Shown here in pieces: positions 16,380 through 23,054 of a DNA stretch of 64,000 nt; position 1 is the stretch's first letter, and each line of letters opens with the position of its first letter. The position numbers and the translations under genes were made by a program. The notes beneath the pieces are model-generated. The model worked only from the letters and a program-made list of their open reading frames with translations, did no database searches and was not told the origin of the DNA. The DNA comes from Promethearchaeota archaeon. Lineage in GTDB: Archaea > Asgardarchaeota > Lokiarchaeia > Sigyniarchaeales > SOKP01. The DNA is taken from positions 6,662-70,661 of the forward strand of contig JBHLME010000002.1 in assembly GCA_048938445.1 (NCBI GenBank), in the 5' to 3' direction.

Positions 16380-17591
16380 TTATAAAGCATTTATAAGAAT
16401 TTGCATCAATTGTTTTTTATCCGTCTCTCTTGGATTATTTTCCAATGAACTCCCTGTTGTATCCTTTACAATATCATTAAGATGTTCTTTACTAATTCCA
16501 ACATCAGATAAATGTAATGGAATGTTGATATATTCAAAAATGTCTTTTAATTTTTCAATTGCCCATTCTGCTTGCCCTTTTAATTCTTTAGGTAATACCT
16601 TCGAACAACTACCATGATCAGTAAGAATTTTTTGTTTATGAAACAGTCTTGCAATCCAAGAATAAGCTTTTACAACGGTATCTATTTCAATGTTAAATCT
16701 CATTACGTGAGGTAAAAGAAGCCCACATATTAGGCCATGAGCAATATCATGTTTTATGCCAATTGGATGGGCAAATCCATGAACTGCTCCAAGTTTACCA
16801 TTAGCAAATGAAATTGCACCTAATAAACTCCCAAGCATCATCTTTTCTCTTAAACCTATGTTAGATAAATCATCATATACAAGTGGTAAGTTTTCTCCTA
16901 ACAATTCTATTGATTTTCTCGCAAAAAAATCTGAGATGAAATTTGCACTTTTTGAAACAAGTGATTCTATAGCTTGAACTAACGCATCAGCGCCAGAATA
17001 TGCAGTGTACTTCTTTGGTAAAGATAAAGTCAATTCAGGATCTAATAACGCTAAATTTGCCCACAATCCACGAATACTCTTTTTTAATCCAGTTTGTTTA
17101 TTCTTTATGACGGAATTATTTGTAACTTCTGAGCCAGTTCCGGAAGTAGTAGGTATTAAAATAAATGGGAGCGCCGGTTGAATAAATTCTTTGCCTGCAA
17201 GATATTCTTCCACGATTCCACCATTAGTCGCGAGCCCTGCGATTCCTTTTGCTGTATCCATGACACTTCCACCACCAATGCCTATTATGATATCACATTT
17301 TTTCTCAATAACAATCTCTTTTCCTTGGTTTATAATATGCGTAGTTGGTTCTCTAATTGCTTTATCATATAGTTCTTTTGATATGTTTTTTTCTTCTAAT
17401 ATTTTAATAATTTGTTCTAAATTACCTGCTTTTTTCAAAGAGGATCCTCCAGTAACTAAAAATGCTAGGGGATTTTCTATTTTTTTATATTTTAATATAC
17501 TTTTTATCTCGGATCCCAATTCGTCAATTCTTCCTGTGCCAAAAATGATTTTGGGTGATATTAAATTAAAATTTATCTCAGTAATTTCCAT
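16380..17591 (-). CDS. Iron-containing alcohol dehydrogenase
   Basis: GIGGGSVMDTAK, PTTSGTGSEVT, DAL, HGFAH, HGLIC. Confidence 0.92.
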   Translation of the reverse strand: MEITEINFNLISPKIIFGTGRIDELGSEIKSILKYKKIENPLAFLVTGGSSLKKAGNLEQIIKILEEKNISKELYDKAIREPTTHIINQGKEIVIEKKCDIIIGIGGGSVMDTAKGIAGLATNGGIVEEYLAGKEFIQPALPFILIPTTSGTGSEVTNNSVIKNKQTGLKKSIRGLWANLALLDPELTLSLPKKYTAYSGADALVQAIESLVSKSANFISDFFARKSIELLGENLPLVYDDLSNIGLREKMMLGSLLGAISFANGKLGAVHGFAHPIGIKHDIAHGLICGLLLPHVMRFNIEIDTVVKAYSWIARLFHKQKILTDHGSCSKVLPKELKGQAEWAIEKLKDIFEYINIPLHLSDVGISKEHLNDIVKDTTGSSLENNPRETDKKQLMQILINAL

Positions 17592-17614
17592 TCTAACTCA
17601 TTGGAGCAAAATTA

Positions 17615-18070
17615 TTAGCTTCTATCTATAGATAGATATTTTTTTTGTCTTAAAAAGATTACACCAATTTTCGCATTTCTTGCTTTTTTACGTAAATCTT
17701 GATCATTAGATGCCAAAAATATATTCGATCTTTCTTCTTTAAGTTCAGTAGCCTTACGTAATAAAAACTCATCTGTAGTTTCTATTTGATCCTTTATAGA
17801 ATCATCAATTTCAATATTATATTGATTTTTATTTTTATCAAGATAGATAAGTCCTGACTCTAATTGTTTATAAAATTTAGTAGCTTTTGGTTCTCTCTCT
17901 TTTTTTGCTTCTAATTCATCAAAGATTTGTCTATACACAATAAATTTTGTTCTGCCTTCCAAACGTGAATTAATATTCTCAAGGTAGTTAATTTTGAATT
18001 GGAAAGGAAGAAAAATAAAATTAGAATCTATTATAACAAGGTTTTCATAATGAATATTTTTAGGGCTCAA
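17615..18070 (-). CDS. PIN-domain protein (Fcf1/Utp24-like, VapC9 type)
   Basis: IIDSNF, ELE, TDEFLL, ASNDQDLRKK, FLRQKKYL. Confidence 0.8.
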   Translation of the reverse strand: MSPKNIHYENLVIIDSNFIFLPFQFKINYLENINSRLEGRTKFIVYRQIFDELEAKKEREPKATKFYKQLESGLIYLDKNKNQYNIEIDDSIKDQIETTDEFLLRKATELKEERSNIFLASNDQDLRKKARNAKIGVIFLRQKKYLSIDRS

Positions 18071-18588
18071 AAAACTTGTCGCTCTAATATTTTTTTAGTT
18101 AATTTTTCAAAAGCAAAGTTAACGTTTTCACCAGATTTACTTGAAATTTTTATAAAATCAAATAAATTAAAAGCTTCTTGAAAAGATTGAGCATAATCAT
18201 CATCAACCATTATTTCTTCTGTTAAATCTAACTTTGTTCCAACAAATAACACTGGAAGATCAGGATCACCCTTCCGAACTATATTTATCCATTGCTCTAA
18301 ATTATCTAACGTTATTGGACGAGTGAGATCAAACATTAAAAGAGCACCTTTAGCCCCCAAAACGTAGCTTTCAAGGAGGAATCTAAACCGCTCTTGACCA
18401 CCAAAATCCCAAAGTTGTAGGGTTGCGGCATTTCCATCCACTTCAGTTTCTTTTAAAAAAAACTCCACTCCAATTGTCATCTTTGTTTCTGCACTGAATT
18501 TGCCTTCAACATATCTATGCAGAAGCGTGGTTTTTCCAACGCCACCTTCCCCCGCTGTTAGAATCTTCAGTATGAACTTTTTCGGCAT
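18067..18588 (-). CDS. Rab-like small GTPase
   Basis: GEGGVGKT, TIGVEF, WDFGGQERFR, GTKLD, SSK; stop overlaps the PIN gene start. Confidence 0.92.
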   Translation of the reverse strand: MPKKFILKILTAGEGGVGKTTLLHRYVEGKFSAETKMTIGVEFFLKETEVDGNAATLQLWDFGGQERFRFLLESYVLGAKGALLMFDLTRPITLDNLEQWINIVRKGDPDLPVLFVGTKLDLTEEIMVDDDYAQSFQEAFNLFDFIKISSKSGENVNFAFEKLTKKILERQVF

Positions 18589-19000
18589 CGTGTTCCTATA
18601 TCATATATGTGTTTTCTTTAAACTGAAATATAAGATAATAGATAGTTATTGTTAATATTATTATTAAAATTTTTATATCTTTTATTTCTAGGTATATAAT
18701 TTCATGTATTTTAATTTATTTTTTTAAAATAAATTAATTTTTACATGCTATCGTATTTTATTCACAGTTTATTATTTAATTTAGAAATGATAGAAGTGAT
18801 AAATAAATATTTGTTAATCAAAAAAAGTGAGATATAATAACACATATTTTTTAAGGTCAGTTTTATTTAAAAACAAAAACTCAAAAGGATTAGAGTTATT
18901 TCACAATTTATTTCTATTGAAGATAAAAATTATTTTATGTTTCGAAATCTTATAAGTAATTAAATATATTTACCGTAATGTATTCAAAAGGTGGAAAAAA

Positions 19001-19282
19001 TTGAAAAAGAAAACTCCAACAGATGAAGAATTAAATAATTTAAATGTTGAAAGCTGGGGTGTTTGGACTAAAGAACAAAGTGTCTTTCCCTGGTCTTATG
19101 ATGACGCTACTGAAACATGTTATATTTTAGAAGGAGAAGTTGAAGTTACCGATTCAGAAACGGGAGAAAAAATGAGTTTTCAGAAAGGAGATCTTGTACA
19201 ATTTCCCAAAGGATTAAAATGTGAATGGAATGTAAAAAAACCTGTTAGGAAGTACTATCATTTTGGAGATTTGGATATTTAA
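19001..19282 (+). CDS. Cupin_3/DUF861 family protein
   Basis: WGVW, FPWSYD, ETCYILEGEV, GDLVQFPKGLKCEW..PVRKYY; GGTGG SD before TTG. Confidence 0.88.
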   Translation: MKKKTPTDEELNNLNVESWGVWTKEQSVFPWSYDDATETCYILEGEVEVTDSETGEKMSFQKGDLVQFPKGLKCEWNVKKPVRKYYHFGDLDI

Positions 19283-19327
19283 TTAGAAAATTATTTTCCT
19301 TTTTTTTATAATAATTATGAAGTGTTG

Positions 19328-19864
19328 TTACTCCGCTTTTTTTCTCTGATTAATCCTATTATGCTTTATTAGAGTTTCTCTAATCGATTTAATTTCTGCT
19401 CGTGTTTCTATATCAAAATCTTTTAAACCCTCAAGAATCTCTTTTTCATTTGAACCCATACTATAGAGTTCATTAAATTTTACTATTACCTCTTTATGAT
19501 AGTAAATGTAATGTCTTTCTAGAAAAATAATCAACCATTCTTTATTTGATTGGTACTGTGTTAAATCATACATTTTTTCTTGAATTTTTTTTAATGGCTC
19601 CTTTAATTTTCTGGCAACCATTCTATCGTCAATTTTATAATGACTTTTTAAAGTTTTATTTAATTTTTTTGTAAAAAAGAGTGAATTAATATATGAAACC
19701 AAAAATGAAAATGCCAATAATAAAATCGTAATAACACATATCCAAATCGTTGCGACAGGATTAACATTTATGAAAAGTAGTGCTATTAACGCTATGGTTA
19801 AAAAGATTATTGTAATTATATGTTGTCTAAATTTTTTAATGAGTATTATGTATTTTTTTGGCAT
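19328..19864 (-). CDS. Hypothetical membrane protein (2 TM plus basic cytoplasmic domain)
   Basis: Two hydrophobic helices near the N-terminus. Confidence 0.7.
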   Translation of the reverse strand: MPKKYIILIKKFRQHIITIIFLTIALIALLFINVNPVATIWICVITILLLAFSFLVSYINSLFFTKKLNKTLKSHYKIDDRMVARKLKEPLKKIQEKMYDLTQYQSNKEWLIIFLERHYIYYHKEVIVKFNELYSMGSNEKEILEGLKDFDIETRAEIKSIRETLIKHNRINQRKKAE

Positions 19865-19950
19865 TTAATTAATCAAGTCCATTATATTTTTTTATGATTA
19901 AATGATATTAATTATTAAATAAATAAAAATTATTAGATAAGTAAAGTTAA

Positions 19951-20146
19951 TGGTATGCGACCATCTAGCTGCACTATCTATTCTGAGTTCGGATGTTATC
20001 AGGTAGATCCTAGCTTACCATGACCGTAAACGTATTTACAGTTTGTCATTTCCCACTGATCGCAACAGCAGTACTATTGACAACGTAAGCAAGTTTAACT
20101 TCCAGAGATATGGCGATATGCCACAGCATCATGGTCATTAATACCA
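19951..20146 (-). other. 5S precursor processing stem with BHB/BHL-like motif
   Basis: Nested complements 19951-56/20141-46, 19959-64/20131-36, 19968-71/20124-27, 19975-79/20106-10; central helix CUGG/UCAG followed by AAG and AAU bulges. Confidence 0.8.
19981..20099 (-). rRNA. rrf: 5S rRNA, circularly permuted gene (3' half 20099-20035, UACG linker 20034-20031, 5' half 20030-19981)
   Basis: Conserved CCGAAC loop C, GUUAA, AGUA/GAA loop E, GCGA loop D; helices I-V all pair once the halves are reordered. Confidence 0.92.
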
Positions 20147-20309
20147 ATTCAAATCCGTTCATAAGATCGGTAATTTGAAATTCGAATTCCTACTTATGTG
20201 GATAAATTATAATAACTCTAATTATTTTTAATAATTAAATTTTATTATATTTATTCGTCTCGTGAAGTAAACCGTTAAATTTAAATAATATTCAAGTGAA
20301 TCATTAAGA

Positions 20310-20864
20310 ATGATCTTTCAGATATTGCTACGTAATGTACCAGACTTTCAATATATAATCAATGCTATAATTGCAATACTAGGAAGATCATTAGATATAA
20401 TTAGCACGAGATATGTTTCAAAAGAATTAAAATTAGAAACAAATAAATTTGCAAGACGTCTTGGATGGCCAGGAGCAATTTTGATTCAGATACCTTTAAT
20501 CATATTAGGATCACTTGATTTTTATTTAGCCTTGTTTTTATTCGTTTGGAGTTTCTATCTTTTTGCCAATAACTTAGAGGGAAGTTGGTATGTAAAACAA
20601 GTGGGAGAAGAGCAATATAAGAATGAATTGAAAGATCAATTAAATCAATCAAAAACACTAAAAATAATTTTAGGTGAAATTTCCTCTCTATTAACTTATA
20701 CCATCTCAGGTATATTAATATTAATCTTTATCTTTGTTTTTAATGATTTTATTGGTGTTGTTTTCATATGTAGTGCATTAATTTTTCAAGGAATAGTAGG
20801 AACGATTAGATCAATAAAATATCTCTTTGAATTAAAAAAAGAAAAAACTTTAGAAGAAAATTAA
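20310..20864 (+). CDS. Hypothetical multi-pass membrane protein
   Basis: About 5 hydrophobic segments; LDIIST..ELKLETN motif. Confidence 0.75.
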   Translation: MIFQILLRNVPDFQYIINAIIAILGRSLDIISTRYVSKELKLETNKFARRLGWPGAILIQIPLIILGSLDFYLALFLFVWSFYLFANNLEGSWYVKQVGEEQYKNELKDQLNQSKTLKIILGEISSLLTYTISGILILIFIFVFNDFIGVVFICSALIFQGIVGTIRSIKYLFELKKEKTLEEN

Positions 20865-20879
20865 TAAAAAAATAAAAGA

Positions 20880-23054
20880 TCATTCTTTTAATCTTTTCAA
20901 ATTACTAGAATGTTGATTGATACCTCTAATAACTATCACTATAGAAAGACCTGTTATAAATGATATAAGAATAGTACCGCCTATCAAGACAATGTAAGTC
21001 GAAGGAATAGGGATGAGGAATTCAAATGTCTGCGAATAAAATTGCGTGTTGTTGGCATAATCTCTAGTGATGATTGTAAATTCATAGAAGCCCGGCATCA
21101 TTTTATTCAATAAGACTTGCAGCAAGGTGTTGTTTTCATACAATGTATTTCTTGATATATCATAGGTGTAGGTTCCACTTATTTTATCTTGAATTAAAAC
21201 AATGGCACTTTCAATTCCCGAGCGGTTATCTGAGGCAAAAATATCGAAACAAATGTTGTCTAAAGTCGTGGGATTAATTTTATCACAAAACACGCTTGAA
21301 ATAACGGGCTTGATATTGTCTTCTTTGGTCGTGAAGTTAAAATGGGAAGGAATTAAATTATGACCTGTAATCGTCACGTTATATTTTTCATTGGCGTTCG
21401 GATAGACGCGAAATTTTGCTATGCCATTTATATCCGCGTATACAGTGTTATATTTCCCATCTTCCGTCGTTAGATGGATTCTCGCATGAGGAACTATATT
21501 GTTTCGTGTATCTCTGATGGTTATTGAGACTAACTGACCTTCATAAATGTCCCCTGTAAATGGATTTGAAGCATTTACGGGTTTGTTCGTGTAGATGTCA
21601 ACTTCGGGATCACCTAAAAGGCAATAGGTCAAGACATTCTTTCTTTGATATCCTAAACTCATCGATGATATTGTCTGGGCAAAGATATCGGAATTTACGT
21701 AATCTAGTTTGGAATCATACAGGGTTTTACCTTGTTGGTAAATTTTATCTTCAAAAAATTTCTCCCAGAATAATTTCGCATTAGCTCTATTTAAAAATTC
21801 GAAATCAAAATCATCTACAATATACCATGTAACGCGTAATGCCCCAATATAACCAATAGCACCAGAGTTAGTCGCTTTGATTAATATTTCTCCTATGTTC
21901 TGATCAGTATCATCATAAGCTGAAGTTGTACAAGCATCAGCATAGATCAATGAAGGCATATCAGCATTAGAACTAGATGATGCTTGAGTATCTGTGTATA
22001 TACTAAAACCTACACCACGGCTACTATATAATCCAGTATCACCATGACCCGCAAACATGATCGTTGAGTAACCACTGTTAAATTCATTGTTAAATTCAGA
22101 AGCATCACTAATTTCGTCTACAGTATCTGATGGATCTACTGAAGTATTCACTGAAAAATAAGTTGATCTATATAAATGAGTAAAATTCATTTCAGGTTCG
22201 ACATAATTTTTCCAGATATATTCTGTCAAACGAGCCTCATCTTCACCATCGGGACTTGCTTCAATAACAGTATCTGAGATTACTCCTGCTAATAACATGT
22301 TATTCATCCAATCATCAATATATGGATCTGACTCGTATTTTATGGTCTTATTGACCATCTGTTGTAATTCGATATAATTGCTAGCTGGCAAGCGTCCAAC
22401 ATACACTTCAGGGATCCAATTAATTTCATCTATTCCAAATGCATTATATATTGGTGATTCACCAAAATTATTGTCATTATCATCATCCCACGTGCCCGTC
22501 AAGTCGGCATAATAAAAATCCGTAGGTTTGTAAACCCTATCACCATGTTCTGGGTGAGGTCCGTTAGGAGCATCGTCAACATCTGGATTATAAACATATC
22601 TTATTGGAATGAGACTATTTTCTGCATCTCCCACTAATAAGACCCATCGAATCCCTTCTTTTTCATAGTATTCCTTTATCATGTTTCGAATTCGTTCTGG
22701 ATCGTCTCTCCCAGGGTATGATGAGAAATTGCTCAATATGATGGTCTTAACTCCTTTTTGGTTCTTCCAGTCCCGTAATGGAATGGTTGCATTGATAAAA
22801 TTCTCATCATCGGGAGTTATGATTATCATTTCAACATCATGGTCATACCAAGTTTCATTTAAATCAGTAAAATTAAATTCAGGTATTAATGACGGATTTA
22901 AATCAGAAATGTAACCTGATGTTTTTAATATTTCAGAATTATTAAAGTTCTTAAAAGTTATTGCGTTAAGGTTTATGATTAAAATATAAGTTGGGAAAAC
23001 AAGGAAAATAATAAATGAGAGATATATAATTCTTTTTAAGAGAAGCGACTTCAT
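20880..23054 (-). CDS. Peptidase C25 (gingipain-like) cysteine protease, membrane anchored
   Basis: VLLVGD, TDFYYADL, VGRLP, FAGHG (His), ADAC (Cys), LLGDP; N-terminal signal/TM and C-terminal TM. Confidence 0.88.
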   Translation of the reverse strand: MKSLLLKRIIYLSFIIFLVFPTYILIINLNAITFKNFNNSEILKTSGYISDLNPSLIPEFNFTDLNETWYDHDVEMIIITPDDENFINATIPLRDWKNQKGVKTIILSNFSSYPGRDDPERIRNMIKEYYEKEGIRWVLLVGDAENSLIPIRYVYNPDVDDAPNGPHPEHGDRVYKPTDFYYADLTGTWDDDNDNNFGESPIYNAFGIDEINWIPEVYVGRLPASNYIELQQMVNKTIKYESDPYIDDWMNNMLLAGVISDTVIEASPDGEDEARLTEYIWKNYVEPEMNFTHLYRSTYFSVNTSVDPSDTVDEISDASEFNNEFNSGYSTIMFAGHGDTGLYSSRGVGFSIYTDTQASSSSNADMPSLIYADACTTSAYDDTDQNIGEILIKATNSGAIGYIGALRVTWYIVDDFDFEFLNRANAKLFWEKFFEDKIYQQGKTLYDSKLDYVNSDIFAQTISSMSLGYQRKNVLTYCLLGDPEVDIYTNKPVNASNPFTGDIYEGQLVSITIRDTRNNIVPHARIHLTTEDGKYNTVYADINGIAKFRVYPNANEKYNVTITGHNLIPSHFNFTTKEDNIKPVISSVFCDKINPTTLDNICFDIFASDNRSGIESAIVLIQDKISGTYTYDISRNTLYENNTLLQVLLNKMMPGFYEFTIITRDYANNTQFYSQTFEFLIPIPSTYIVLIGGTILISFITGLSIVIVIRGINQHSSNLKRLKE

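Follow-up and report, generated by a model that had tools for sequence, protein, structure and literature searches.

A circularly permuted 5S rRNA gene with a predicted relaxed BHB at its ends in a Promethearchaeota genome, and its probable maturation into a circular RNA

The window (the whole 64,000-nucleotide stretch of DNA analysed here) carries on its minus strand, at 20099-19981, a circularly permuted 5S rRNA gene, in which the 3' half comes first, a capped helix I follows and the 5' half comes last. Because the two halves stand in swapped order and are flanked by a motif of the tRNA-splicing type, the RNA must be cut and re-joined, and the product of cutting and re-joining is most likely a closed ring. 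We consider it probable (about 0.6) that this permuted gene, the only one for 5S rRNA in the organism, is matured by EndA cleavage at a relaxed BHB and RtcB ligation into a covalently closed 5S rRNA of 119 nt, and that this circle is the most likely ribosomal form. The identity of the nuclease, that of the ligase and the final topology are the parts of this reading that we infer. The 5S rRNA is universal, and its gene is treated as colinear and easily found in Archaea, Bacteria and eukaryotic nuclei.

Organization of the locus

The elements of the locus are listed below in the direction of transcription, with window coordinates.

20157-20171, minus strand: promoter-like BRE/TATA element ACCGAUCUUAUGAAC, its promoter role predicted from sequence
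20106-20146, minus strand: leader, with the stem 5' strands UGGUAU, GACCAU and GCUG, a side hairpin and UAUCU (sequence and fold)
20123-20111, minus strand: side hairpin of the leader (sequence and fold)
20110-20106, minus strand: outer helix strand UAUCU; the bulge-adjacent outer helix covaries in relatives
20102-20105, minus strand: 5' strand CUGG of the BHB central helix (sequence and pairing in relatives)
20099-20101, minus strand: 5' bulge AAG, with a predicted cut at 20100/20099 that would make G20099 the 5' end of the excised RNA
20035-20099, minus strand: 3' part of 5S, comprising GU of helix III, loop B, the helix II 3' strand, helices IV/V with loops D and E, and the helix I 3' strand (RF00001 half-match, alignment with canonical genes of the sister family f2, fold)
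20042-20035, minus strand: helix I 3' strand ACUGUAAA
20031-20034, minus strand: UACG tetraloop capping helix I and bridging what are normally the 3' and 5' ends of 5S
19981-20030, minus strand: 5' part of 5S, comprising the helix I 5' strand, loop A, the helix II 5' strand, the helix III 5' strand, loop C, UCAG and AA (RF00001 half-match, f2 alignment, fold)
20030-20023, minus strand: helix I 5' strand UUUACGGU
19983-19986, minus strand: 3' strand UCAG of the BHB central helix, doubling as the 3' strand of mature helix III
ending at 19981, minus strand: the two bulged A's of helix III, the last letters of the 5' part
19980-19982, minus strand: 3' bulge AAU, with a predicted cut at 19981/19980 that would make A19981 the 3' end of the excised RNA
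19951-19979, minus strand: trailer, with the stem 3' strands AGAUA, CAGC, AUGGUC and AUACCA (sequence and fold)
19917-19929, minus strand: oligo-U runs 3' of the trailer, a likely archaeal terminator, again judged by sequence

The segment predicted to be excised (20099-19981) measures 119 nt, and its helix I comprises 8 bp closed by the UACG cap. A box of the form ACCGAnCUUAUAWAA, similar to the BRE/TATA element, lies 5' of homologous genes in other genera. The outermost processing helix may lie partly 5' of the transcription start.

Identity and copy number of the 5S rRNA gene

Similarity to the Rfam 5S model (RF00001) became visible only when a 221-nt segment was scanned, as two half-matches in swapped order at 20033-20142 (15.9 bits) and 19945-20031 (19.3 bits). 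Scans of positions 17000-23000 (E ≤ 1) and of the whole window (at the gathering score) returned no match, and the gathering cut-off of 38 bits was not reached on genomic sequence in the window or the genome, a shortfall caused by the permutation of the gene. The locus is the best of 52 scored RF00001 candidates in the 4.63-Mb assembly (256 contigs, 96.5% complete), where BLAST finds it as a single copy. It is the organism's only 5S gene, the absence of a second copy being not absolute at 96.5% completeness.

The 119-nt product folds into the three-way junction of a 5S rRNA, with helix I, helices II-III and helices IV-V and a loop C of 12 nt, and a linear version nicked at the junction adopts the identical fold (-25.5 kcal/mol). 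When rotated to the usual start, the predicted products align end to end with nine canonical 5S genes from the sister family f2, and the motifs ACGGUCAUAG, CCCAUCCGAAC and AGUACUG...GGGAA are common to the rotated product and these genes. The f2 genes are ordinary canonical 5S genes, with a TATA box ending about 23 nt before the 5S start and a T-run directly 3', and a search for a BHB around them found none. Within the host family, just two of 118 genomes (G074 and G131) have a 5S match above the RF00001 threshold; both sequences are bacterial-looking (e.g. GUGAAA) and probably come from contaminant contigs. Permutation accounts for the missing 5S annotation in most genomes of the family.

The flanking stem and the BHB motif

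The earlier note on this DNA had described complementary flanks that meet, next to the 5S ends, in a 4-bp helix with a 3-nt bulge on each strand, and had regarded the arrangement as a relaxed BHB with an imperfect inner helix. We find every one of these elements, base for base, on the minus strand. The distal pairing brings together UGGUAU (20146-20141) and AUACCA (19956-19951) as well as GACCAU (20136-20131) and AUGGUC (19964-19959), followed by GCUG (20127-20124) with CAGC (19971-19968) and UAUCU (20110-20106) with AGAUA (19979-19975); the outer helix h of the BHB has 5 bp at this locus. The central helix, formed by CUGG (20105-20102) and UCAG (19986-19983), consists of three Watson-Crick pairs and one G.U pair, and a 3-nt bulge stands 3' of each strand (AAG, 20101-20099; AAU, 19982-19980). 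The motif departs from a strict hBHBh' in that the inner helix h' is absent, U20098 facing C19987, and the sole alternative h' pairing (G-C/U-A/U-A) would cut one bulge to 2 nt. The flanks are best described as a putative relaxed BHB (hBHB without h'); relaxed forms are handled by heteromeric endonucleases, according to the portion of PMC4731332 available to us.

The distal stems occur in both the minimum free energy (MFE) and the centroid folds (MFE -55.2 kcal/mol, z = -2.03), and six of 200 shuffles fold as well as the flank-containing locus. The central 4-bp helix is missing from the MFE fold; forcing it together with UAUCU/AGAUA yields -54.6 kcal/mol, a penalty of just 0.6 kcal/mol. As a control for chance, both strands of the window were searched for a BHB-like arrangement with 4/4 central pairs, 3-nt bulges, at least five adjacent outer pairs and a spacing of 119, which occurs at 30 of 127,700 positions (2.3e-4). 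The arrangement at the 5S locus falls in the single register that restores the 5S sequence.

EndA cuts after the second nucleotide of each bulge, a rule known from the literature on tRNA introns. Applied to the sequence and followed by ligation, this rule restores helix III with no base gained or lost and predicts a 119-nt circle. The earlier note had obtained the canonical junction in this way for the present locus alone, and its reasoning extends to two further break points and to 30-nt introns in relatives.

Conservation and variation in related genomes

The permuted gene was found as a colinear match in 64 of 81 genomes of the host family, including single-contig or few-contig assemblies. 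Homology to 5S was the sole guide in placing the BHB sites, pairing being left out of account, and 62 of 67 unique loci could be placed in this way. The central helix is paired at all four positions in 60 of these 62 loci, at least three adjacent outer pairs are likewise present in 60, and both hold together in 58; the second central pair exchanges between UA, CG and UG. Bulge lengths are constant, with 5' bulges reading AAG (33) or AAC (10) and 3' bulges AAA (22), AAU (8) or UCA (8), among others. Four of the 62 loci miss the strict BHB pattern, three of them having CCGA/CCGG with an A.C mismatch, and in the closest relative (G004) the bulge-adjacent outer helix has only two pairs. The distal stems vary between genera.

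Pairing at outer positions 1-6 amounts to 219 of 288 cells, against 162.9 ± 6.3 when partners are shuffled (maximum 187 in 2000 shuffles), and 198 of 240 are paired in the true register compared with 50-109 when the strands are slid. The covariation score is 0.434, as against 0.187 with shuffling (reached in 0 of 500 shuffles) and at most 0.109 with sliding; the formal count of covarying pairs used 27 sequences, 23 of them distinct. The pattern was replicated in metagenomes, where 46 of 51 contigs could be placed, with 4/4 central pairs in 45, at least three outer pairs in 45 and both in 44. Covariation of the flank stem, named in the earlier note as a check, is borne out by compensatory changes in the 58 loci and 44 of the 46 metagenome contigs.

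Helix I is paired at 99.5% in the relatives, with four pairs changed on both sides, and its cap loop is mostly UUCG, UUAG, UUUG or UACG; in 28 of the 48 loci cleanly resolved by script the cap is UUCG, UACG or UCCG. One subgroup, genus g6, has a 31-nt hairpin inserted into the cap, in which neither the script nor inspection by hand found a BHB. This insertion agrees roughly equally well with a cap that is dispensable or removed and with an expansion segment.

Relatives display at least two further break points. One lies in loop C (type B), where the EndA cutting rule gives back the canonical sequence in all 19 type B loci, and another in loop B (family f3), where a reading by eye, not recovered by the strict script, restores it as well. 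Some relatives have 30-nt BHB introns inside the 5S gene, and for the intron in loop C the rule returns a canonical 5S in 12 of 12 loci. Permuted 5S genes with BHB flanks occur also in several other Asgard families.

The joined form in RNA and DNA

Among the RNA runs searched, just one, the metatranscriptome X1, contained any of the query words (share 0.08). It contains a 151-nt contig that follows window positions 20028-20102, continues with 33 other letters and then enters 20015-20057 again (it 'goes back 88'). Read in the RNA sense, the contig proceeds from the cap through the 5' part to ...CCGAACCCA-GAAGUUAAAC... and overlaps itself by 30 nt, a form corresponding to a 121-nt cycle at k = 31 or to a read running round a circle. 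A circle is implied by the fact that the contig spans both the cap and the predicted junction. The contig derives from a close relative (90-95% alike) and has a depth of 3.7, abundance and ends being not readable from contigs; a search for its source among 195 loci, made with a 21-letter motif, gave no match, and the gene arrangement in that organism is inferred from relatives. The contig does not fix the site of closure, in that a canonical linear 5S joined end to end would give the same circle, an origin made unlikely solely by the presence of the permuted gene in all relatives examined. A tandem DNA repeat was considered as the origin of the cyclic contig and rejected, as all loci have a single unit between leader and trailer.

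The earlier note had described the junction CUCAGAA|GUUAAAC as absent from the DNA and had named it as the sequence to look for in RNA. Its absence from DNA holds, the joined form preceded by the cap being found in none of the metagenome contigs as against 51 with the unjoined gene form. In RNA the junction is seen in the single X1 contig, which comes from a close relative of the host.

Enzymes and the proposed maturation pathway

The tRNA-splicing enzymes presupposed in the earlier note are both encoded in the genome. Two EndA paralogues (PF01974 at 107.4 and 69.7 bits; ORFs of 202 and 204 aa) are 36% identical over 125 aligned residues. The 202-aa protein corresponds to the C-terminal repeat of EndA models with two repeats and has candidate catalytic Y/H/K residues, assigned by reading its sequence against the residues of known enzymes, and the 204-aa protein matches the N-terminal repeat and is without a His at the aligned position; the two are predicted to form a split pair of a catalytic and a structural subunit. 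The RtcB ligase is found at 563.7 bits.

The primary transcript would consist of the leader, the 3' part of 5S, the UACG-closed helix I, the 5' part and the trailer. Pairing between leader and trailer would place both gene ends in a series of outer helix, 3-nt bulge, 4-bp helix and 3-nt bulge, with the 3' strand of 5S helix III recruited into the 4-bp helix and the conserved AA bulge of helix III into the bulges. The catalytic and structural EndA paralogues would then cut each bulge after its second nucleotide, and RtcB would join A19981 to G20099, thereby restoring helix III and yielding the closed 119-nt 5S rRNA. A stable, conserved tetraloop closes helix I and shows no obvious signal for processing, so that the circle itself would most likely enter the ribosome.

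The step most exposed to an alternative interpretation is the last one, as the circle might be an intermediate that is reopened in or near the UACG cap to give an ordinary linear 5S in the ribosome. Helix I ends are free in all canonical 5S rRNAs, re-linearised circles have precedents (PMC7758197; PMC4267664 citing Soma 2007, both drawn on in part), and the g6 cap tolerates its 31-nt hairpin without a BHB, as expected of a discarded cap. We nevertheless regard reopening as rather unlikely: the cap, a loop of 4 nt seated on an 8-bp helix that covaries throughout, offers no spacer for nuclease trimming and no conserved processing motif, the X1 contig traverses it twice, and a circular SRP RNA and a circular 23S rRNA are known as end products (excerpts of PMC4731332 and PMC12918454). 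It is also conceivable that cleavage is not followed by ligation and that a linear permuted 5S, with ends at the AA bulge of helix III, is held together by base pairing. The identical fold of the nicked product agrees with this possibility, and the brown-algal mitochondrial 5S, as described in the part of PMC4267664 available, stays permuted in its final form. The joined sequence is, however, present in the X1 contig, the 30-nt introns of the same gene need exon ligation, and the break points in loops C (19 loci) and B (f3) would leave nicks in differing functional loops; moreover, the genome encodes RtcB, an enzyme known to seal the products of EndA (PMC4731332, in part). We deem a product left unligated improbable.

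More radical alternatives concern the motif and the gene themselves. Leader-trailer helices are widespread around rRNAs (PMC11404451, in part), the inner helix of the BHB is missing and EndA cleavage is a prediction, so that a generic processing stem cut by other RNases, with an incidental likeness to a BHB, could be envisaged. What relatives keep, however, is not a long stem, as the distal stems differ between genera, but the exact geometry of four pairs, 3-nt bulges and an adjacent helix, which recurs at three break points and the introns and always in the register that restores the 5S, and even with other RNases doing the cutting, the transcript of a permuted gene would require a ligase to make helix III or loop C whole; we judge this explanation very improbable. 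That the locus is a rearranged pseudogene, the real 5S gene residing in an unassembled part of the genome, might be suggested by the fragmented and incomplete assembly and by the frequent absence of rRNA genes from MAGs. It is contradicted by the permuted form and compensatory changes in the 64 family genomes, by the promoter- and terminator-like elements at the locus and by the rarity and bacterial look (by motif reading) of over-threshold 5S sequences in the family. We reject it, on the grounds of conservation and covariation, as having hardly any probability.

Returning to the closed 119-nt 5S rRNA as the preferred product, a broader scenario, to which we give even odds, is that most Asgard (Promethearchaeota) lineages have a covalently closed circular 5S in their ribosomes and that its gene underwent permutation several times, at different sites, and took in 30-nt BHB mini-introns. 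Under this scenario any break point would be neutral, the product being circular.

Significance and comparison with known systems

A full-text literature search, covering the main texts of articles, found no published description of a permuted, BHB-flanked 5S. If the proposed pathway is correct, a cellular lineage in which the sole 5S gene is scrambled and its RNA cut and re-ligated by the tRNA-splicing machinery would be new, BHB-dependent circularisation would extend from SRP RNA, tRNA and 16S/23S rRNA to the third rRNA, and, in the archaea closest to eukaryotes, ribosome biogenesis would be linked with the splicing endonuclease and its ligase partner. Several break points and introns converging on one product would amount to a natural experiment on RNA topology and on the origin of permuted genes.

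In 2007 Soma et al. reportedly described tRNA genes of Cyanidioschyzon merolae that are permuted and whose expression passes through a circular RNA. As far as the partial accounts used here show, these genes resemble the present locus in having the 3' half, a linker and the 5' half in this order and a terminal BHB, in another organism and another RNA class; their circle is reopened at the acceptor stem by end-processing enzymes, whereas the linker here is just a tetraloop, for which no opener is known.

The closest parallel is the permuted, BHB-processed circular SRP RNA of Thermoproteus described by Plagens et al. in 2015 (PMC4731332, of which parts were consulted for this comparison). Both cases concern a universal structured RNA whose gene is permuted and has a leader-trailer BHB at its new termini; in both, the canonical gene is undetectable by standard models, and an endonuclease of the heterotetramer type, with catalytic and structural subunits, is proposed to cut the RNA and RtcB to circularise it. 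The Thermoproteus case is confined to one genus and is backed by Northern blots and an EndA assay, whereas the present one is known from sequence and extends over a large family, in which at least two break points are used, and into several other Asgard families. It further differs in concerning 5S, a component of the ribosome, and in taking its 4-bp helix and bulges from structures of the RNA itself, namely helix III and the AA bulge.

[quoted passage not shown] The 16S and 23S genes are colinear and their natural ends are joined, whereas here the gene is permuted and ligation rebuilds an internal helix. The available text of PMC12918454 speaks of circularisation for 16S and 23S 'but not 5S rRNAs'.

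The mitochondrial 5S rRNA of brown algae (Valach et al. 2014, PMC4267664) shares with the present one a helix I closed into a hairpin and poor covariance-model scores. Unlike here, only its alpha domain is rearranged, with the ends at the three-way junction, and the RNA stays permuted and linear, with neither BHB nor ligation in the portion of the article used. Closed RNAs with 5S sequence have also been recorded in Sulfolobus and Halobacterium (PMC12558985 citing Danan et al. 2012, an excerpt). Those heterogeneous circles originate from ordinary genes, differ in their junctions and are regarded as part of degradation, whereas the locus analysed here specifies one precise junction, dictated by the BHB and needed for an intact 5S rRNA.

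A permuted 5S rRNA gene with bulge-helix-bulge flanks

Read on the minus strand, the interval 20150-19945 of the window holds all the complementary segments that an earlier note had reported, each in its place, and between them lies a 5S rRNA sequence whose halves stand in swapped order. The observation from which that note started, complementary 5S flanks resembling a bulge-helix-bulge (BHB), is confirmed at the locus.

Features of the permuted 5S rRNA locus (window positions, minus strand)
20105-20102 (-) and 19986-19983 (-): CUGG and UCAG, the BHB central helix
20042-20035 (-): helix I 3' strand ACUGUAAA, reached from GUUAAAC... via helices IV and V (5S 3' part)
20034-20031 (-): UACG tetraloop
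20030-20023 (-): helix I 5' strand UUUACGGU, followed by loop A, helix II, helix III and loop C (5S 5' part)
19981 (-): terminus of the 5S 5' part, ...CCGAACUCAGAA
Outer helix UAUCU/AGAUA (-), abutting the 3' bulge

Rfam returned no match in a 6-kb scan with E-values up to 1, nor across the whole window at the gathering score. A 221-nt scan gave two adjoining sub-threshold matches to RF00001. Good alignment is confined to the 5' half of the model in one of them (19.3 bits) and to the 3' half in the other (15.9 bits), and it is the 3' half that lies upstream. Across the 4.63-Mb assembly, which is 96.5% complete, the permuted locus was the best of 52 scored 5S candidates, none of which reached the RF00001 cut-off of 38 bits. 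The gene is alone in a 445-bp gap between ORFs at 19328-19864 (-) and 20310-20864 (+), and ARAGORN found no tRNA gene in the whole window. A box, ACCGAnCUUAUAWAA, is conserved upstream of the permuted genes and is sometimes preceded by a second, A/T-rich one (window 20157-20182 and the upstream regions of relatives); transcription may or may not include the outermost leader-trailer helix (UGGUAU/AUACCA in the window), according to which of the two boxes serves as TATA element.

Three unpaired bases, AAG and AAU, lie 3' of the respective strands of the central helix. The inner helix is absent, which bears out the relaxed form of the motif that the earlier note had read from an imperfect inner flank. 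Applying its rule of cutting after the second bulge base would release 20099-19981, 119 nt, whose joined ends would read CUCAGAA|GUUAAAC. The distal stems are common to the MFE and centroid folds; the 4-bp helix is not in the MFE structure, and the BHB can be enforced at a cost of only 0.6 kcal/mol. Among the 127,700 positions of the window, 30 have an equally good arrangement with this 119-nt spacing. In the folded product the junction adjoins the conserved AA bulge of helix III and UCAG pairs with the 5'-strand CUGA; G20099 and U20098, unpaired in the computed fold, would by our reading of the helix form the next two pairs beyond the bulge. Since the BHB is built from the 5S's own helix III strand and AA bulge together with a leader copy of that element (CUGG-AA), we infer that the permuted arrangement was born of a partial tandem duplication.

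Alternative break points and predicted introns

The window's gene represents type A, broken at the AA bulge of helix III (...CCNGAA^GUUAAAC). In type B, which occurs in four genera, including a genome of the window's own genus (G005), the break is in loop C, with the leader GCG-CUGG-AA^C-CAUCCGAAC... and the 3' end ...ACCCGG-UC^A-CGC, and here too a 4-bp helix goes with 3-nt bulges and GCG/CGC pairing (loci L013 (G005), L012, L017, L053-L060, L064-L066, L068, L075, L079 and L087). The same cutting rule here yields ...CCCGGUC|CCAUCCGAAC..., identical to the contiguous type A sequence. A genome of another Asgard family, f3 (locus L011), is broken in loop B; reading by eye showed a 4-bp helix with AA^A bulges and GCG/CGC pairing, a case that our strict script did not recover. 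Genera g1, g2 and g11 each include both type A and type B; the break point has therefore shifted repeatedly, unless it was polymorphic in the ancestor. That such diverse break points yield the same RNA only after joining argues for ligation.

Loop C contains a 30-nt insert in twelve unique loci (L033, L034, L038, L039, L042, L046, L052, L055, L073, L081, L082 and L084). Each of the twelve has a UCCG/CGGG central helix paired at 4/4 positions with 3-nt bulges, the inner hairpins differ in sequence between groups with most pairs kept, and removing the insert according to the tRNA-intron rule restores CAUCCGAA|CCCRG. Another four loci (L085, L024, L087 and L088) have 30-nt BHB-flanked inserts at two helix IV / loop D sites. 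By their sequence features the 30-nt inserts are predicted BHB introns of the 5S rRNA gene, at three sites in all; to our knowledge, and in our literature searches, no intron in an archaeal 5S rRNA gene has been described. Genus g6 (L025, L041, L043 and L084) has a 31-nt hairpin with its own loop inserted in the helix I cap, with a stem that differs between L025 and L084 while keeping its pairs; no BHB was found in this insert, which may represent an expansion segment, an intron that has degenerated or a spacer that is discarded. Three loci of family f12 (L200 in G253, L201 in G231 and L203 in G249) have their parts in canonical order but with stretches of ~30 nt inserted into the 3' half, which may be introns, and fall just under the Rfam cut-off.

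Conservation and covariation of the motif

Among the relatives both cleavage sites were placed purely from 5S motifs, pairing not being demanded, and this succeeded for 62 of 67 unique loci (four were cut by contig ends and one was missed by the pattern).

Pairing at the BHB in the placed loci
Central helix paired 4/4: type A, 41/43 loci; type B, 19/19 loci
At least three outer pairs adjoining the bulge: type A, 41/43 loci; type B, 19/19 loci
Both together: type A, 39/43; type B, 19/19

Covariation of the flank stem, for which the earlier note had pointed to homologues, is present at the outer positions: the pairs are GC 38, UA 3, AU 3 and CG 2 at position 1, and GC 27, AU 12 and CG 4 at position 3. 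Paired outer cells numbered 219 of 288, against 162.9 +/- 6.3 for shuffled partners (maximum 187 in 2000 shuffles), and the true register had 198/240 paired, against 50-109 in slid registers. Counting pairs formally on 27 type A sequences without introns, 23 of them distinct, gave a covariation score of 0.434, compared with 0.187 on shuffling (0 of 500 shuffles reached the true score) and at most 0.109 on sliding; the central helix was 100% paired, its second pair being UA in 13 and CG in 10, and helix I was 99.5% paired, four of its pairs having changed on both sides. The type A gene form was also present on 51 metagenome contigs, of which 46 could be placed; 44 of these showed both features, and new compensatory variants appeared among the contigs. 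Exceptions are CCGA/CCGG with an A.C mismatch in three loci, an outer helix mismatch in L081, and only two outer pairs beside the bulge in G004, the closest relative.

Distribution among Asgard archaea

The RF00001 cut-off was passed in nine of 41 related genomes, all belonging to the sister family f2 (9/11 f2 genomes versus 0/25 genomes of f1, the window's family). In a wider sample of genomes at least 80% complete it was passed in 2/118 f1 genomes; these two 5S matches (L090 on G074:C68 and L091 on G131:C263; 80.8 and 51.9 bits) look bacterial by their GUGAAA motif and probably sit on contaminant contigs. Families f5, f6 and f7 of the class gave sub-threshold matches only. BLAST with the window's 221 nt as query found a colinear, hence permuted, match in 64/81 f1 genomes and 11/13 genera. 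A pattern for the capped helix I, scanned over one genome per species (185,579 species), matched 104 stretches; among the 80 matches listed, 72 are titled Promethearchaeota, Promethearchaeia, other Asgard or 'uncultured archaeon', and the other eight bear bacterial titles, about the number expected beforehand by chance.

Rotated to the usual start, the predicted products can be aligned over their full length with nine canonical 5S genes of f2. Those genes have a TATA box ~23 nt upstream, are followed at once by a T-run and have no BHB. Genomes of f2 have two or three canonical 5S copies, some in tandem ~375 bp apart (L004 = G032:C1 1399892-1400758; G098, G097), the kind of substrate that could yield a permuted gene by partial deletion.

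In a phylum-wide sample, canonical 5S was found in 47/151 genomes; one family was matched in 37/37 genomes, most over the Rfam cut-off and a few below, and many families had no canonical 5S. Of twelve weak-match loci, nine read by eye as permuted 5S with capped helix I, the three from f12 being in canonical order. The script found an outer helix with a strict BHB in G151 (L196, f8, with a genome of 1.4 Mb in one contig; 10-bp outer helix, CGUG/CACG as central helix), G146 (L205, f5; outer helix 7 bp) and G149 (L206, f7; 13 bp); by eye, relaxed versions were recognised in G174 (f10) and G202 (f13; 11-bp outer helix, 3/4 central pairs), and in G208 (f10) the script's match lay in another register. 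Capped, permuted 5S with mostly clear flanks of this kind was noted at L196, L205, L206, L207 (G150, f7), L204 (G147, f6), L197/L198 (f10), L202 (f13), L199 (f26), L011 (f3) and L014 (f4). Judged from these genes, permuted, BHB-flanked 5S seems widespread in Asgard archaea.

Splicing endonuclease and ligase

The genome encodes the ligase RtcB (563.7 bits) and two paralogues of the splicing endonuclease EndA as separate genes (L061:1453-2061 (-) and L062:1423-2037 (-), on own-genome contigs C26 and C80). Of the two products, the one of 202 aa corresponds to the catalytic, C-terminal repeat in models of two-repeat EndA and has Y, H and K at the presumed catalytic sites. The 204-aa protein matches the N-terminal repeat and, in a pairwise alignment, has no His opposite that of its paralogue; the two are 36% identical over the 125 residues aligned by BLASTP. 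This suggests a heterotetramer that would combine catalytic C-terminal-like with structural N-terminal-like subunits. PMC4731332 ascribes the most relaxed BHB recognition to the catalytic-plus-structural architecture, which fits a motif without an inner helix.

The proposed joined RNA and its probable final topology

Only one RNA run contained any of the locus's words, and it was aligned on 19900-20200. One of its contigs (151 nt, depth 3.7) matches 20028-20102, continues with 33 letters corresponding to a diverged 5' part, and next, after a step back of 88, matches 20015-20057; in the direction of the RNA it runs ...helix I, UACG cap, helix I, loop A...CCGAACCCA-GAAGUUAAAC..., back to the cap. 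Its internal overlap of 30 nt is that expected from a 121-nt cycle at k = 31 or from a read going round a circle. The loose end of another contig (149 nt, depth 18.9) reads ...CGAACCCGGAAGUUAAAC.... The 151-nt contig comes from a relative, 90-95% alike, whose locus was not found when 195 loci were searched with a 21-letter motif, and such contigs give neither abundance nor ends. As a check on DNA, metagenome contigs were searched for the cap followed by the joined form, which occurred in 0 contigs, versus 51 for the gene form. A canonical 5S circularised by end-joining would look the same in the 151-nt contig; the gene of every relative examined is permuted, however, and it is this alone that points to closure at the BHB.

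By script, an 8-bp helix closed by a 4-nt loop was resolved as the cap structure in 48 of 62 loci (UUCG 21, UUAG 10, UUUG 6, UACG 5, UCCG 2, others 4); the remaining 14 are mostly script artefacts, the exceptions being the four g6 loci with their real 31-nt hairpin insert. A conserved, stable tetraloop without a spacer suggests that the cap is kept in the mature RNA, and we put the probability that mature 5S is a circle at about 0.6. Re-opening of the circle with loss of the cap, with which the g6 insert is equally compatible, strikes us as rather unlikely. Circular end products have precedents in the SRP RNA and the 23S rRNA, as described in PMC4731332 and PMC12918454, respectively. Overall, the BHB-dependent circularisation of 5S that the earlier note had proposed is supported; EndA would make the cuts, and the mature form is probably a circle.

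Comparison with known systems

The openly available main texts searched contained no report of a permuted or BHB-processed archaeal 5S, nor the expression 'circular 5S rRNA'. According to PMC12918454, circularisation affects 16S and 23S 'but not 5S rRNAs', and the heterogeneous circular 5S fragments mentioned in PMC12558985 differ from our case in stemming from ordinary genes and are read there as degradation. The expression 'permuted 5S' was encountered only in Valach et al. 2014 (PMC4267664), on brown-algal mitochondria, where the final RNA itself is permuted and arises without ligation. BHB-dependent circularisation of a permuted non-coding RNA gene is already known; what would be new here is that it concerns 5S rRNA and is spread over a large lineage.
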